A DNA stretch of 64,000 nucleotides, from NCBI GenBank assembly GCA_965116605.1, contig OZ220697.1, forward strand, positions 1,852,766 through 1,916,765, written 5' to 3'. Within the stretch, counting starts at the first letter, position 1. Each line of letters opens with the position of its first letter. The notes under the pieces are model-generated. The model saw only the letters and a list, made by a program, of their open reading frames with translations. It did not search any database and was not told the origin of the DNA. Source of the stretch: Dehalococcoidia bacterium (GTDB lineage Bacteria; Chloroflexota; Dehalococcoidia; Lucifugimonadales; UBA2962). Below, in pieces: positions 39,019-48,090 of this stretch. Both the position numbers and the translations under genes were made by a program.

Positions 39019-39093
<75 letters not shown>

Positions 39094-39206
39094 CCGCTTA
39101 ACCGAATCCCGTCAACCGCCGCCTCCCGTCCCGACGTCCGGAAGACGCTCCTCCGGGAATGAGCTTCGCCCAGACCCGGAGTCAATTTGCCAAACCAATA
39201 GATGCG

Positions 39207-42343
<3,137 letters not shown>

Positions 42344-42404
42344 CCCATCTATCAGTTAGCAGCATATTAATGCTCGGTTTGACAGGATTCGGTTGTTAAG
42401 GTGC

Positions 42405-42435
42405 AAAAAAAGACGGCTGGGTGCTCCCAGCCGTC
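42405..42435 (-). terminator. Strong intrinsic terminator between the consensus promoter and the 23S 5' end
   Basis: The minus strand reads GACGGCTGGG-AGCA-CCCAGCCGTC followed by TTTTTTT: a 10-bp perfect GC-rich stem, a 4-nt loop and U7. Confidence 0.7.
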
Positions 42436-42499
42436 GTGCTGAGAAGACAGGTTCGTATGTTACGTTCGCGTATCTCGCACCGGTCTCTCCAATCAGGGA

Positions 42500-42528
42500 A
42501 TTATATTTTCAGGCTGCGGGCCAGTCAA
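42500..42528 (-). promoter_or_regulatory. Near-perfect sigma70-type promoter upstream of the 23S rRNA
   Basis: The minus strand reads TTGACT-(17 nt: GGCCCGCAGCCTGAAAA)-TATAAT. The predicted TSS is near 42493. Confidence 0.65.
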
Positions 42529-42578
42529 GGAACATTTGTCCATCCGGCACGGTGCGTATCGGGCCCGCAGCCGGGCAG

Positions 42579-43475
42579 CTAGGCGCCGACGATGGCGCGT
42601 GCGATCTCCGCGGCCAGCTCCCTGGTGCAGGCGGCGATCAGCCACGGCACCCTCTCCGATGAGCGTTCCGGCTCAAAGCGGTAATCGGTCAGCTCTCCCG
42701 TATCGGACGCGGAGAAGACACCCAACGCGCAGGCACTGGCGAATCCCAGGCCCGGATCGATCTCGGTGCGGGGTTCGTCGTACATGACATATGCGTGAGT
42801 CAGACCCCTGGCCAGCCAGGGATAGCTGCAGGCCCCGCCGTCGGTCCACAGCCTGGCCCGAGGGCTTTCCTCCTCCAGGATCGTCAGCAGTCCTGCCGAG
42901 CGGCCCGTCCAGTACCTGACGTAACTCGGGCTCATCAGGTAGGCCGCAATGATCGACTCGTCGGATAGCGTCCTTGCAGTTGAGGGACGAACATCCCTGA
43001 CCTCGCCGCTGTACAGGGACTCGACGGTCACGGCCGAATCGGTGGCCATGTACAGCTCCCTGCGGTTTATGTCAACCGCCCCTGCCATCACCGGAGAGGG
43101 GGACCCCTCGGCCGCGCTCCATACCGTAAGCACACTCCACCACTCGGCGGGCAGCCCGCGCATGAAGTGACCGGAACCGTCGAACGGGTCGCAGGTGATA
43201 AGGAAGGGGGCGGGACCACGGCCTCCGATCCTCCGCCGACTGTGCTCGGAGTACAGCTCTACATCTACACCGCATTCCTCAAGCCAACGCTGCAGAAGGT
43301 CCTCCGAATAGCGGTCCAGCCCGATCTCCACATCCTCTACCTCGGTCCGTCCCGCCACCGGTCCGAGCACGGCGCGCCCCTCGCCTCCGCTGAGGCGGGG
43401 CACTTCCTGCGCCAGCTGTCTGAGGTAGCCGTCAATCGCCCTGCGGAACCCACCCAGCTCGCCAGCACTCATCAC
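42579..43475 (-). CDS. Divergent FBPase/IMPase (FIG) superfamily-like phosphatase
   Basis: The only recognisable element is CDPFDGSGHF, resembling the DP(I/L)DG(S/T) metal-binding motif. The second family motif (WDxAAG) was not found. Confidence 0.4.
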   Translation of the reverse strand: MMSAGELGGFRRAIDGYLRQLAQEVPRLSGGEGRAVLGPVAGRTEVEDVEIGLDRYSEDLLQRWLEECGVDVELYSEHSRRRIGGRGPAPFLITCDPFDGSGHFMRGLPAEWWSVLTVWSAAEGSPSPVMAGAVDINRRELYMATDSAVTVESLYSGEVRDVRPSTARTLSDESIIAAYLMSPSYVRYWTGRSAGLLTILEEESPRARLWTDGGACSYPWLARGLTHAYVMYDEPRTEIDPGLGFASACALGVFSASDTGELTDYRFEPERSSERVPWLIAACTRELAAEIARAIVGA

Positions 43476-43604
43476 CGGGCCGACCTATCGGTTTCGGGCT
43501 CACATGCCATACTGACCGCAGGTGCGCTGCGGGAAGCTCCCCTCCATCCAGCCACTCCGTAGCCGGCGACATCGGCCAGACGGCTCAAGCTGATCGATCC
43601 CCCT

Positions 43605-44216
43605 TCACTGGCTGATGGCAGGTCCGGCGTAGCGCATTCGCTCGGGCAGGTCCTCGATTACGCCCAGTGCCACGGCCGTGCGATGAGCAACAAAGTCGAC
43701 AACCTCCTCGGTCGTCTGCTGTCGCAGGTAGAAGGCTGGCTCAGGCGGAATTATCGTGGCGCCTGCGGCCGCGAGGTCAGCAAGATTCCTGAGGTGAATC
43801 ACGCTTAGGGGCGTCTCCCTTGGCACCACCACCAGCGGCCTGCCCTCCTTGATCGTAACGTCGGCCGCCCGGCGCAGAAGGTTGTCCGCATGCCCGTGCG
43901 CGATCGCGGCGGCCGTTGCCATGCTACACGGCACAACCGCCATACCGGCCGTGGGAAAGGTTCCCGAAGCGATCGAGGCGCGCATGTCTCCTATTGCGCA
44001 GTGGGTGAAGTCTCCCATGCCGGCCCATCGCTCGATCGCCTCGCCGAAAGACTCGTCCATCTCCTCAGTCCAGACCATGCGAGCCGCCGGAGAGGCCGTT
44101 GACACCACGGGCACGCCCCGAGACAGCAGCAGCTCGACGGTCGCCCTTGCCAGTACCGACCCGCTGGCGCCACTCATGCCGACAACCACGGGCCTCGAAT
44201 CGATTCGCGGAGACAT
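43605..44216 (-). CDS. ubiX: Flavin prenyltransferase UbiX (prenyl-FMN synthase)
   Basis: VVGMSGASGSVLA, VVPCSMATAAAIAHGHADNLLRRAADVTIKEGRPLVVVPRETPL. Its ATG at 44216 overlaps the ubiA stop (TGATG). The upstream part of the long track ORF is an out-of-frame shadow of ubiA. Confidence 0.9.
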   Translation of the reverse strand: MSPRIDSRPVVVGMSGASGSVLARATVELLLSRGVPVVSTASPAARMVWTEEMDESFGEAIERWAGMGDFTHCAIGDMRASIASGTFPTAGMAVVPCSMATAAAIAHGHADNLLRRAADVTIKEGRPLVVVPRETPLSVIHLRNLADLAAAGATIIPPEPAFYLRQQTTEEVVDFVAHRTAVALGVIEDLPERMRYAGPAISQ

Positions 44217-45127
44217 CAGACGAACACCGCCGCGGCGGTGCCTGCCAGGACCGTGGAAGCAACGAGGGCGTTGATTCGGAAGAAGGCCATCCCCATTCGC
44301 GACATGTCGCCAGGAGACACCAGTAGGTACTTGTATGACAGGCCGGCCACCGCGGCCGTCCAGCCCAGATAGAAGGGCCATGAAAGCCCCATGGCCAGAC
44401 CCAGGGCCAACAGGGAACCGGAGGCCGCAACGTCCATCGCCCTTGCGACAGTGAACGCACGGCGGACACCGAACCGTCCTGCCACCGAGTGCAGACCACT
44501 GGCCCTGTGAAACTCTTCGTCCTGTGCGTGATAGATGATGTCGAAGCTGCCCGCCCACATGGCGACTGCCACCGACAGCACCACAGGTTCCCAGCTCAGA
44601 GAACCGCGCACACCTATCCATGCCGCTGCGGGAGCGATCGCCAACGCCCAACCCAGCAGCGGGTTTGCCAGATACGTGAAGCGCTTGGTCAAAGGGTAGA
44701 GGGTGAGATATGCGGCGGCGGCGGGAACCAACGCGAGAGCCAGCGTGTTGAGACGCCAGGCCGCCACGGTCAGCACCGCCAGCCCGATCAGGGCCAGTGC
44801 CGCCATGTCGGAGGCGCGAAGGCGGCCGGTGGGAAGGTGCCGGCCGGCGGCGCGGGGGTTGCGCGCATCTATATGCCGGTCTATCAGCCGGTTTGCCGCC
44901 ATTCCCAGGGTTCTGGCGCCAACCATAGCGACGGTGATCCACAGGAACTGGGCCAACGTGGGCAGACCGTCAGCCGCAAGAAACATGCCTGTGTAGGCAA
45001 ACGGCAGTGCGAACAAGCTCTCATGGATCTTGATCGCGTCCGGGAGGTGCCGAAGTCGTCTTGACAGTGGTTCGGGACTGCCTACCACCCGGGGCGAGAG
45101 CGCGGTCAAAGCCCGTACTCCTCCCAT
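44216..45127 (-). CDS. ubiA: UbiA-family aromatic polyprenyltransferase (4-hydroxybenzoate/MqnP-like)
   Basis: Asp-rich motif NRLIDRHIDARNPR(T/A)AGR, multiple TM helices and a second motif region YHAQDEEFD-like. The ATG at 45127 overlaps the ubiD 3' end by 22 nt. Confidence 0.8.
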   Translation of the reverse strand: MGGVRALTALSPRVVGSPEPLSRRLRHLPDAIKIHESLFALPFAYTGMFLAADGLPTLAQFLWITVAMVGARTLGMAANRLIDRHIDARNPRAAGRHLPTGRLRASDMAALALIGLAVLTVAAWRLNTLALALVPAAAAYLTLYPLTKRFTYLANPLLGWALAIAPAAAWIGVRGSLSWEPVVLSVAVAMWAGSFDIIYHAQDEEFHRASGLHSVAGRFGVRRAFTVARAMDVAASGSLLALGLAMGLSWPFYLGWTAAVAGLSYKYLLVSPGDMSRMGMAFFRINALVASTVLAGTAAAVFV

Positions 45128-48060: not shown

Positions 48061-48090
48061 TTGACATGGGTGGATTTGACGACCTAGAAT
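48061..48090 (+). promoter_or_regulatory. Sigma70-type promoter for the ktrB leader
   Basis: TTGACA-(18 nt)-TAGAAT. The predicted TSS near 48097 coincides with the first base of the leader's closing helix. Confidence 0.5.

Follow-up and report, generated by a model that had tools for sequence, protein, structure and literature searches.

How can a 23S rRNA gene be transcribed when what looks like a canonical intrinsic terminator stands between the gene and its promoter? This question is raised by a stretch of 64,000 nucleotides from a Dehalococcoidia bacterium (GenBank assembly GCA_965116605.1, contig OZ220697.1, positions 1,852,766 to 1,916,765 of the forward strand), called the window below and numbered from its first letter. 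On the minus strand of the window, the region 42528-42326 is the leader of a stand-alone operon composed of a 23S rRNA gene and an initiator tRNA gene (tRNA-fMet). rRNA operons are the textbook case of transcription protected from termination, and their control is attributed to initiation, through guanosine tetraphosphate (ppGpp) and nucleoside triphosphates (NTPs), and to antitermination at boxA. In the present leader, a near-consensus promoter is followed by two hairpins, the second of which abuts a run of seven T, and then by boxA. Judging from sequence and comparative data, the leader may act as a cis-acting attenuator, possibly coupled to the ribosome, and not as an independent small RNA (sRNA) gene. 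The probability of this reading is estimated at about 45%.

Promoter, Terminator-Like Hairpin and BoxA in the 23S rRNA Leader

An earlier examination of the letters of the window without database searches (hereafter, the sequence-only reading) had recognized on the minus strand the order promoter, hairpin, boxA-like element. All three are present, essentially where they had been placed:

42523 to 42528, minus strand: -35 hexamer TTGACT (consensus scan; a 10-11/12 promoter is found in all related 23S leaders)
42500 to 42505, minus strand: -10 hexamer TATAAT, after a 17-nt spacer (consensus scan; relatives)
42493, minus strand: predicted transcription start, +/-2 nt, placed by promoter geometry at the seventh nucleotide past the -10 hexamer
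42412 to 42435, minus strand: hairpin 2, GACGGCUGGG-AGCA-CCCAGCCGUC, putative terminator stem-loop in the boxB position, with segment beta at 42431-42425 (covariation; 40 loci)
42405 to 42411, minus strand: U7 tract adjoining hairpin 2 (all class A leaders, defined below, are U-rich here)
42392 to 42405, minus strand: boxA, UGCACCUUAACAAC (5' of 23S in about 72 genomes and 5' of 16S in 120 metagenome loci)

The promoter, TTGACT-17-TATAAT (42528-42500), agrees with the consensus at 11 of 12 positions, and a consensus scan of 41500-44500 returned it as the sole promoter-like site, shuffled sequences giving 0.5. It had been called the best promoter in the window. This is true in that it alone combines a perfect -10 hexamer with a 17-nt spacing, but its score of 11/12 is shared, across the 64 kb, with two other sites, at 48061 (plus strand) and 54170 (minus strand). 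The former reads TTGACA-18-TAGAAT; the latter reads TTGACA-18-TATCAT and overlaps a terminator-like hairpin at 54183-54162. The -35 hexamer is flanked by an 11-nt inverted repeat, GGCTGCGGGCC / GGCCCGCAGCC (42572-42562 and 42522-42512, minus strand), which is not present in the same form in the related locus L003. Transcripts reading through from the upstream gene would contain it as a long hairpin across the promoter region.

Since every one of about 70 unique Dehalococcoidia 23S leaders contains a promoter matching 10-11 of the 12 consensus positions at 63-136 nt 5' of boxA, the site can be taken as the promoter of the 23S-tRNA-fMet operon. The sequence-only reading had noted no second plausible promoter between the U-tract and the 23S rRNA gene, and the consensus scan was blank there as well. 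Moreover, the 43-70 nt that separate boxA from the 23S rRNA gene are taken up by the strands of leader-trailer helices described below, and there is therefore no room for a second promoter in the relatives either. Such a promoter was rejected. Very probably, the near-consensus promoter is the operon's only one, so that every 23S transcript passes hairpin 2 and U7.

Hairpin 2 (GACGGCTGGG-AGCA-CCCAGCCGTC, 42435-42412) comprises 10 pairs, eight of them G-C, and a 4-nt loop, with a calculated energy of -20.0 kcal/mol. T7 (42411-42405) follows directly. A GC-rich stem-loop adjoining a U-tract is the anatomy of an intrinsic terminator, and the site, already described as a strong terminator in the sequence-only reading, is the strongest terminator-like one in the 64 kb. 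Next to it, TGCACCTTAACAA (42405-42393), read against E. coli boxA (TGCTCTTTAACAA), agrees at 11 of 13 positions. In terms of the general definition of boxA, a consensus of about GCUCUUUAACAA in the transcribed region 5' of an rRNA gene, UGCACCUUAACAA gives the same 11/13, and the element earlier termed boxA-like is conserved in relatives. Hairpin 2 ends 7 nt 5' of boxA, in the position of boxB.

The sequence-only reading had suggested, as one of two possibilities, that 23S synthesis requires read-through, by antitermination, of a terminator located upstream of boxA. The architecture of the window and the promoter position in about 70 leaders agree with the need for read-through. However, boxA antitermination cannot act at hairpin 2, because boxA is transcribed after it.

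Conservation of the Leader and Its Two Classes

Contigs that carry homologues of the upstream gene at 96-56% identity keep the order gene, intergenic region, 23S. Their intergenic regions contain the promoter, the first hairpin, the second hairpin with T6-8, boxA and then AATCCTG, even in marine relatives with flanking DNA of about 39% GC. Taken over all relatives, the synteny and the leader persist while the identity of the upstream protein falls from 100% to 56% and the GC content from 65% to about 39%. A scan of one genome per species with the query GCACNTTAACAAYNNAATCCTG gave at least 80 loci, and about 72 of the matches listed are metagenome-assembled genomes (MAGs) of Dehalococcoidia/SAR202/Chloroflexota. 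In every one of these, the boxA and AATCCTG module has the 23S 5' end 43-176 nt downstream; none is a 16S leader. One locus (L217, P0018) was discarded, not being syntenic with a 23S gene. A common plan holds for about 70 Dehalococcoidia genomes: near-consensus promoter, 63-136 nt of structured leader, boxA, two leader-trailer helices, 23S, tRNA-fMet and terminator, with neither 5S nor 16S. The boxA 12-mer is also present 42-102 nt 5' of 16S in 120 metagenome loci.

Class A, as it is named here, comprises about half of the unique leaders, that of the window among them. Its hairpin has the form xCGGCUGG...CCAGCCGx, and a U-rich stretch of 5-8 nt follows directly. The other leaders (class B) have a different hairpin at the same place and an A-rich or mixed linker (for instance CGACCGGUAUGAAACGGUCGGAAAC-GCAC), with no U-run. 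A covariance model, R1, built from 26 class A sequences, matched 40 loci at 43.6-77 bits, all 40 of them 23S leaders, as compared with at most 30 bits for class B leaders and at most 29 bits for 100 metagenome 16S-leader loci. In the 1.35 Mb of sequence searched, the R1 module was not found apart from 23S leaders, and it is in none of the metagenome 16S leaders. Within the class A alignment of 26 sequences, hairpin 2 is 94.3% paired and six of its nine pairs have changed on both sides; none of 500 shuffles paired as well, and slid controls reached at most 51%. Counted from the predicted start of transcription, the U-run ends after 73-107 nt, in most cases after 85-100. Thus, the promoter/hairpin/U-run/boxA arrangement singled out in the window is conserved in 40 related loci and is, for that reason, far beyond chance.

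These data bear first on the upstream gene, which the same hairpin had been thought to serve as well. If hairpin 2-U7 were the terminator of this gene, which encodes a protein resembling the FBPase/IMPase superfamily, the rRNA promoter would merely happen to lie upstream of it. The gene is co-directional with the operon and ends 144 nt before the hairpin, with no other canonical terminator in between. However, hairpin and U-run are both kept in lineages with a divergent upstream gene (the L016/17/19/22/62/75/77/81 clade and L032), and the hairpin holds a constant position with respect to boxA and not to that gene. Since such lineages keep it, hairpin 2 is not there to end the neighbouring gene. 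The proposal fails as a general reason and is extremely unlikely.

The comparison bears, secondly, on the idea that the segment from promoter to terminator is an independent gene for an sRNA or mini-mRNA of about 88 nt acting in trans, with 23S made by leaky read-through or from another promoter. Such a gene would have a strong promoter and a strong terminator of its own, its predicted RNA is well folded (-36.7 kcal/mol, z -4.2), and sRNAs derived from 5' untranslated regions by premature termination are known, for example Rli51 (PMC11394854). Against this, the module never occurs apart from a 23S gene (40/40 model matches), all 23S genes of the class Dehalococcoidia use a promoter at this position whether or not a U-run follows, no alternative promoter was found, and the encoded peptide described below is not conserved. 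Nor did Rfam contain a family for it: in 42300-42620, no minus-strand match was obtained with E up to 10, and the only match over the leader is PtaRNA1 on the plus strand, at 22.4 bits for a gathering score of 47. An sRNA gene in its own right thus appears quite improbable. The related suggestion of a discrete RNA of about 90 nt combined with a non-canonical 23S promoter finds no support in its second part; a terminated RNA of about 88 nt would still be expected, as a by-product.

A third explanation is that hairpin 2 is a mere boxB-like structural or processing hairpin causing no appreciable termination in vivo, the U-run being a linker or a protein-binding tract and the alternative pairing and reading frame presented below being incidental. 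Every Dehalococcoidia 23S leader does have a hairpin here, with no U-run in about half of them, and abundant 23S is needed from this single promoter. The order boxB-boxA is, besides, the rule in rrn leaders, where boxB has no known role (PMC10250234). It should, however, be noted that U6-8 is kept next to a perfect GC-rich stem in 40 loci from genomes of about 39% to 67% GC, that hairpin 2 ranks above every terminator-like site of the window, including the terminator at the end of the operon, and that the mini-ORF (short open reading frame, below) co-occurs with the U-run class only. A purely structural hairpin is therefore regarded as rather unlikely. That termination at hairpin 2-U7 is both real and conditional seems slightly more likely than not.

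Hairpins of this kind are not confined to 23S leaders. The unrelated metagenome 16S leaders L145, L160 and L179 (also L182) have a promoter of 11-12/12, AUGAGYGAnURR at about +4 (a 3-codon frame, MSD or MSE), a hairpin with U7-8, about 20 nt, boxA and then 16S. A hairpin and U-run shortly 5' of boxA also occur in the 16S leaders L110, L126, L131, L141, L166 and L173. Terminator-like hairpins in rRNA leaders thus recur outside this lineage.

An Alternative Pairing in the Nascent Leader

Upstream of hairpin 2, the leader in the window contains three strands that could enter into mutually exclusive pairings:

42480 to 42490, minus strand: GGAGAGACCGG, purine-rich 5' strand of hairpin 1 (helix P1), also Shine-Dalgarno-like, 4 nt before GTG (folds; P1 covariation)
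42441 to 42451, minus strand: CCTGTCTTCTC, 3' strand of hairpin 1 (folds; covariation)
42438 to 42444, minus strand: alpha, UCUCAGC, candidate antiterminator strand, complementary to the P1 5' strand or to beta

Alpha is a conserved pyrimidine-rich segment just 5' of hairpin 2. Beta (GCUGGGA, 42431-42425) is the apical part of the terminator 5' arm together with the first loop nucleotide. Across the 26 class A sequences, the alpha-beta helix is 94.4% paired, slid controls reaching at most 53%; the observed values were attained by 6-8 of 500 shuffles. Its outermost pair (columns 29 and 66 of the alignment) varies between U-A (10 sequences) and C-G (8 sequences), although column 66 falls in the loop of hairpin 2. 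In the window clade, the UCUC of alpha doubles as the 3' strand of the helix that closes hairpin 1 at its base (GGAGAG/UUCUC), and this helix itself covaries, with G-C replaced by A-U in 4 of 11 sequences.

Folding with RNAfold of the nascent RNA, from the transcription start to the hairpin 2 loop, gives alpha-beta as the minimum-energy fold in most lineages. For the window, the fold with alpha-beta has -21.1 kcal/mol and the one lacking it -15.3. Addition of the 3' arm reverses the preference, the terminator then having -36.7 kcal/mol versus -25.3 for alpha-beta. In the topology of an attenuator, the 5' strand of hairpin 1 would be region 1, alpha region 2, beta region 3 and the 3' arm region 4.

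A Short Reading Frame Ending in a Conserved Motif

Hairpin 1 encloses a short reading frame that terminates within a conserved motif:

42460 to 42480, minus strand: mini-ORF, GTG CGA GAT ACG CGA ACG TAA (MRDTRT, stop); most class A lineages have an in-frame start 15, 18 or 21 nt before the conserved stop
42455 to 42463, minus strand: motif G-UAA-CAUAC (consensus YURACAUA), whose URA is the stop codon of the mini-ORF (class A conservation)

In the window, GGAGAG (42490-42485) is followed by 4 nt, GTG (42480-42478), five further codons and TAA. Among genes of the window, GTG starts with GGAG-type ribosome-binding sites are in use, one example being CAAATTGGAGACCCT-GTG. The YURACAUA motif is located 22-32 nt 5' of hairpin 2 in class A leaders and is mostly unpaired. 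Nearly all U-run lineages read UAA or UGA at its URA triplet, and L062 reads UAG; UGG occurs in L063 alone, where an in-frame TGA comes earlier. By inspection, the motif fits neither a second boxA nor a -35 or -10 element, and these identities were dismissed.

The position of the ATGs located 5' of the motif was recorded in 21 clade representatives. Seventeen are in frame with the URA triplet, as compared with one and none in the other two frames (15:1:0 when L042 and L082, whose anchors were picked with the ORF known, are left out). Rough binomial estimates put the chance of such a bias at about 1e-7 for the raw counts and, with the representatives collapsed to about 12 clades, at about 5e-5. 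From start to stop the distance is 18 nt in 13 representatives; three independent clades have 15 nt and one has 21 nt, so that every spacing is divisible by three. In all, 12-13 of about 17 U-run clades have an in-frame mini-ORF. Two further leaders of the window clade, L215 (MREMTS) and L216 (MRELHT), keep GGAGA-N4-GTG, five codons and TAA with differing codons, and in this clade a single-nucleotide indel is found just past the motif and none inside the frame. The peptides differ (MRDTRT, MREMTS, MTGVRE, MQVLTV, MMKFIC, MKTAK and others), with a weak recurrence of M-R-D/E; given this lack of conservation, neither regulatory codons nor an arrest peptide can be discerned in the mini-ORF. Class B leaders have no ORF of consistent length. 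One of their clades (L018, L020, L023, L028, L036, L051, L093) shares the 5' leader UUACUGCUGAGUCGGAUGGUUG, with an AUG after GAG; the frame has 5 to more than 25 codons and runs into boxA in L018, in contrast with the fixed 5-7 codons of the U-run class.

It can be proposed from these patterns, tentatively, that the ribosome is the input to the attenuator. Alternatively, the hairpin-U7 device may be a real attenuator responding to something else, such as, kinetically, NTP (UTP) concentration or the rate of elongation at the U-tract, or a ribosomal protein, NusA or NusG bound to hairpin 1 or to YURACAUA, and the mini-ORF pattern would then reflect RNA structure or recognition by a protein. The efficiency of intrinsic termination depends on elongation rate, which favours this alternative together with the conserved terminator anatomy, the conservation of a mostly unpaired YURACAUA, the lack of a Shine-Dalgarno sequence in most lineages and the loss of the ORF in some. 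It is less compatible with the 17:1:0 frame bias, with spacings that are all multiples of three and with indels of the window clade lying outside the ORF and never inside. Nor does it explain why L007, L042 and L082 keep the ORF though their AUG cannot pair with the triplet after the stop; the same three lineages led to the rejection of the idea that the AUG is kept solely for pairing with CAU after the stop. An attenuator with an input other than the ribosome is thus considered to have only a small chance of being correct.

Proposed Mechanism

What the sequences themselves show is one strong promoter and, always in the same order, a strand resembling a ribosome-binding site, a six-codon frame, the pyrimidine segment alpha with its two possible partners, the terminator-like hairpin, boxA and two leader-trailer strands, together with the conservation and covariation of these elements. 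On the attenuator reading, transcription would start at about 42493, and a share of the RNA polymerases would stop at about 42408-42405, releasing an RNA of about 88 nt. The remaining polymerases would read on, transcribe boxA, presumably load NusB/NusE-type factors and make the pre-23S-tRNA-fMet RNA, which the leader-trailer helices LT1 and LT2 (below) would then close for processing. The choice might be set by a three-way competition in which alpha has two alternative partners, 42490-42480 (hairpin 1, 5' strand) and 42431-42425 (terminator, 5' arm). The six-codon ORF lies inside hairpin 1, whose 5' strand contains the Shine-Dalgarno-like sequence and the GTG. A 30S subunit or ribosome bound to the nascent leader could therefore keep hairpin 1 open; alpha would be free to occupy beta, the terminator would be delayed and read-through would result. 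When no ribosome is bound, hairpin 1 and then the terminator would form. The full proposal, that in an organism with unlinked 16S and 23S genes the transcription of 23S-tRNA-fMet is gated by a ribosome-sensing attenuator at a six-codon ORF in the nascent leader, is speculative and on the whole doubtful.

Several observations weigh against the attenuator reading. Sister lineages make 23S from leaders without a U-run, so the device is dispensable. The alpha-beta helix has only 7 bp and -9.1 kcal/mol, versus -20 for the terminator; per sequence it is modestly better than composition-matched shuffles (mean z -1.0), and its strand could be rapidly displaced by the 3' arm. In L032, L068 and L035, the predicted full-length fold retains alpha-beta and the 3' arm pairs with the 5' end of the leader. 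Because of these differing folds, the sign of the control may not be the same in all lineages, and the direction given above to the ribosome effect is uncertain. Outside the window clade, the Shine-Dalgarno sequence is absent in most lineages. The mini-ORF is lost or altered in L061, L059, L010, L063 and L030, and the L016 clade has it displaced, an 8-codon frame with a Shine-Dalgarno sequence beginning at the motif instead of ending there. Finally, conservation of the AUG could stem in part from pairing with the CAU after the stop, which is possible in several lineages.

BoxA, Leader-Trailer Helices and the Rest of the Operon

Beyond boxA, the leader is occupied by the strands of two helices formed with the trailer, and the operon ends with the tRNA gene and a second hairpin-U element:

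42375 to 42400, minus strand: LT2, 5' strand (cofold; covaries with trailer)
42359 to 42375, minus strand: small variable hairpin between the two leader-trailer strands (fold)
42326 to 42353, minus strand: LT1, proximal leader-trailer (processing) helix, 5' strand (pairing with trailer)
39215 to 42333, minus strand: 23S rRNA gene
39197 to 39224, minus strand: LT1, 3' strand (pairing with leader)
39097 to 39118, minus strand: LT2, 3' strand CGGUUGACGGGAUUCGGUUAAG, 3 nt before the tRNA (cofold; covariation)
39019 to 39093, minus strand: initiator tRNA-Met, CAU anticodon
38976 to 39008, minus strand: putative operon-end terminator, AAAAGGCCCCGGG...CCCGGGGCCUUUU, hairpin-U4, 3' of the tRNA

The flanks of 23S form the 28-bp helix LT1 (42353-42326 with 39224-39197). 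The sequence-only reading had seen this processing stem and placed it at 42343; the stem is present and its 5' strand spans 42353-42326. Farther out, cofolding pairs the leader segment 42400-42375 (CUUAACAACCGAAUCCUGUCAAACCG) with the trailer segment 39118-39097 in a distal helix, LT2. It overlaps the 3' half of boxA, includes the downstream AAUCCUGUCAAACCG, and its trailer strand ends next to the tRNA. LT2 covaries across lineages, with the leader/trailer combinations CGAAUCC/GGAUUCG, UGAAUCC/GGAUUCA, UUAAUCC/GGAUUAG and AAUUGAAUCCUGUCAA/UUGACAGGAUUCAAUU. Given this overlap, boxA would be single-stranded only until the trailer is transcribed. A GU-rich boxC was not found 3' of boxA, where the sequence (CGAAUCCUGUCAAACCG) is the 5' strand of LT2; because of its covarying pairing with the trailer, AAUCCUG after boxA is considered as a leader-trailer strand and not as boxC. 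The mini-ORF, the alternative pairing and this second helix overlapping boxA are three features that did not appear in the sequence-only reading. Searches for other pairings of the leader gave no candidate worth keeping: besides the two leader-trailer helices, matches to the body of 23S, whether as pairing or as imitation of one of its helices, amounted to 9-mers at chance level, and the trailer has no A-tract with which the U-run could pair.

The 23S gene (42333-39215) is complete (Rfam LSU_rRNA_bacteria, 2744 bits). No 16S gene was found by Rfam anywhere within the 64 kb. Unlinked rRNA genes are already on record for Chloroflexi (bioRxiv 10.1101/705046). The tRNA 3' of 23S (Rfam match 39093-39022, minus strand) is called Met(CAU) by ARAGORN and has the hallmarks of an initiator, a C1:A72 mismatch and a GGG/CCC anticodon stem. 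A sensitive Rfam scan of the 121 nt separating it from 23S gave no 5S, and a hidden 5S gene in this gap was accordingly rejected. The unit formed by 23S and a near-identical initiator tRNA (window 42333-39019, minus strand) is found in every related locus whose sequence reaches far enough (L003-L094). With respect to relatives having a 23S of about 2995 nt (L018, L021, L027), the window contains a GC-rich insertion of about 112 nt at 41598-41485 (23S positions about 736-849), which could be an expansion segment or an intervening sequence.

The upstream gene (42579-43472, minus strand) encodes a very divergent protein of the FBPase/IMPase superfamily, with no Pfam match at 1e-3 and a best NCBIfam match at E 7.6e-4. 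Its homologues come from Dehalococcoidia/SAR202, and the gene remains syntenic with 23S down to 56% identity. The same superfamily includes SuhB of E. coli, which is one of the subunits of the rrn antitermination complex. Orthology with SuhB was rejected, the similarity being faint, at the level of the superfamily and far below family cut-offs.

Comparison With Known Systems

Full-text literature searches returned no report of a terminator or a leader ORF in the leader of an rRNA operon. A canonical terminator 5' of boxA, accompanied by a conserved reading frame and an alternative pairing, in dozens of species of the globally abundant, uncultured SAR202 and other Dehalococcoidia would, if functional, place rRNA under attenuation control as well. 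Should the ribosome be the input, translation capacity would feed back directly on rRNA synthesis. A 'ribosome feedback' has long been postulated for rRNA control, and the leader would give it a physical form by tying the output of 23S, hence of 50S subunits, to the capacity for translation initiation or to the supply of free 30S subunits. Where the 16S and 23S genes are unlinked, organisms could in this way balance their subunits without co-transcription. In any case, the analysis yields a defined RNA motif, R1, absent from Rfam, and an annotated set of signals of the 23S-tRNA-fMet operon for the class.

The idea that polymerase flux is limited about 90 nt into an rRNA leader has a precedent in the E. 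coli rrnB leader, for which Kingston and Chamberlin reportedly described in 1981 a 'turnstile' attenuation, with pausing in vitro and without a canonical terminator. Here, in contrast, a canonical hairpin-U7 and an ORF are present. Leader-derived sRNAs of the Listeria Rli51 type (PMC11394854) likewise are short RNAs with a 5' end set by a promoter and a 3' end set by a terminator; the present module differs in occurring only in 23S leaders.

The E. coli rrn boxB-boxA-boxC site, which is found in the leader and in the 16S-23S spacer and assembles the antitermination complex rrnTAC, has the same stem-loop-then-boxA order 5' of an rRNA gene. In E. coli, boxB abuts boxA without a U-tract, whereas here a perfect intrinsic-terminator hairpin and U7 precede boxA. 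The present leader also differs in having no GU-rich boxC, a leader-trailer strand overlapping boxA instead, and in belonging to an operon limited to 23S-tRNA-fMet with its own promoter. Its boxA shares 11 of 13 positions with that of E. coli and stands directly before the 23S leader-trailer helix, as does the copy in the E. coli spacer (PMC10250234). What boxB does in rrn operons has been called puzzling (PMC10250234). Similarly, the 28-bp LT1 corresponds to the classical pre-23S stem cleaved by RNase III (PMC10250234), and LT2 is an additional covarying helix of about 22 bp that encloses 23S and the 3' spacer, overlaps boxA and ends next to tRNA-fMet.

With ribosome-mediated attenuators (trp, his, pyrBI and B. 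subtilis bmrCD; PMC4191407), the leader has in common a short putative ORF, three overlapping segments predicted to pair as 1:2, 2:3 and 3:4 and a predicted intrinsic terminator. Unlike in these systems, the genes concerned encode rRNA and tRNA and not mRNAs, the ORF has 5-7 codons without conserved regulatory codons, and region 1 consists of the ribosome-binding site and start and not of the 3' part of the ORF. A ribosome terminating at the stop codon, 18 nt 5' of alpha, would leave alpha uncovered. The leader thus corresponds in part to a leader-peptide attenuator. Taken together, these comparisons suggest that its layout is closest to the rrn boxB-boxA(-boxC) site combined with pre-23S helices, and that the logic of the putative switch would be closest to that of the trp, pyrBI and bmrCD attenuators.

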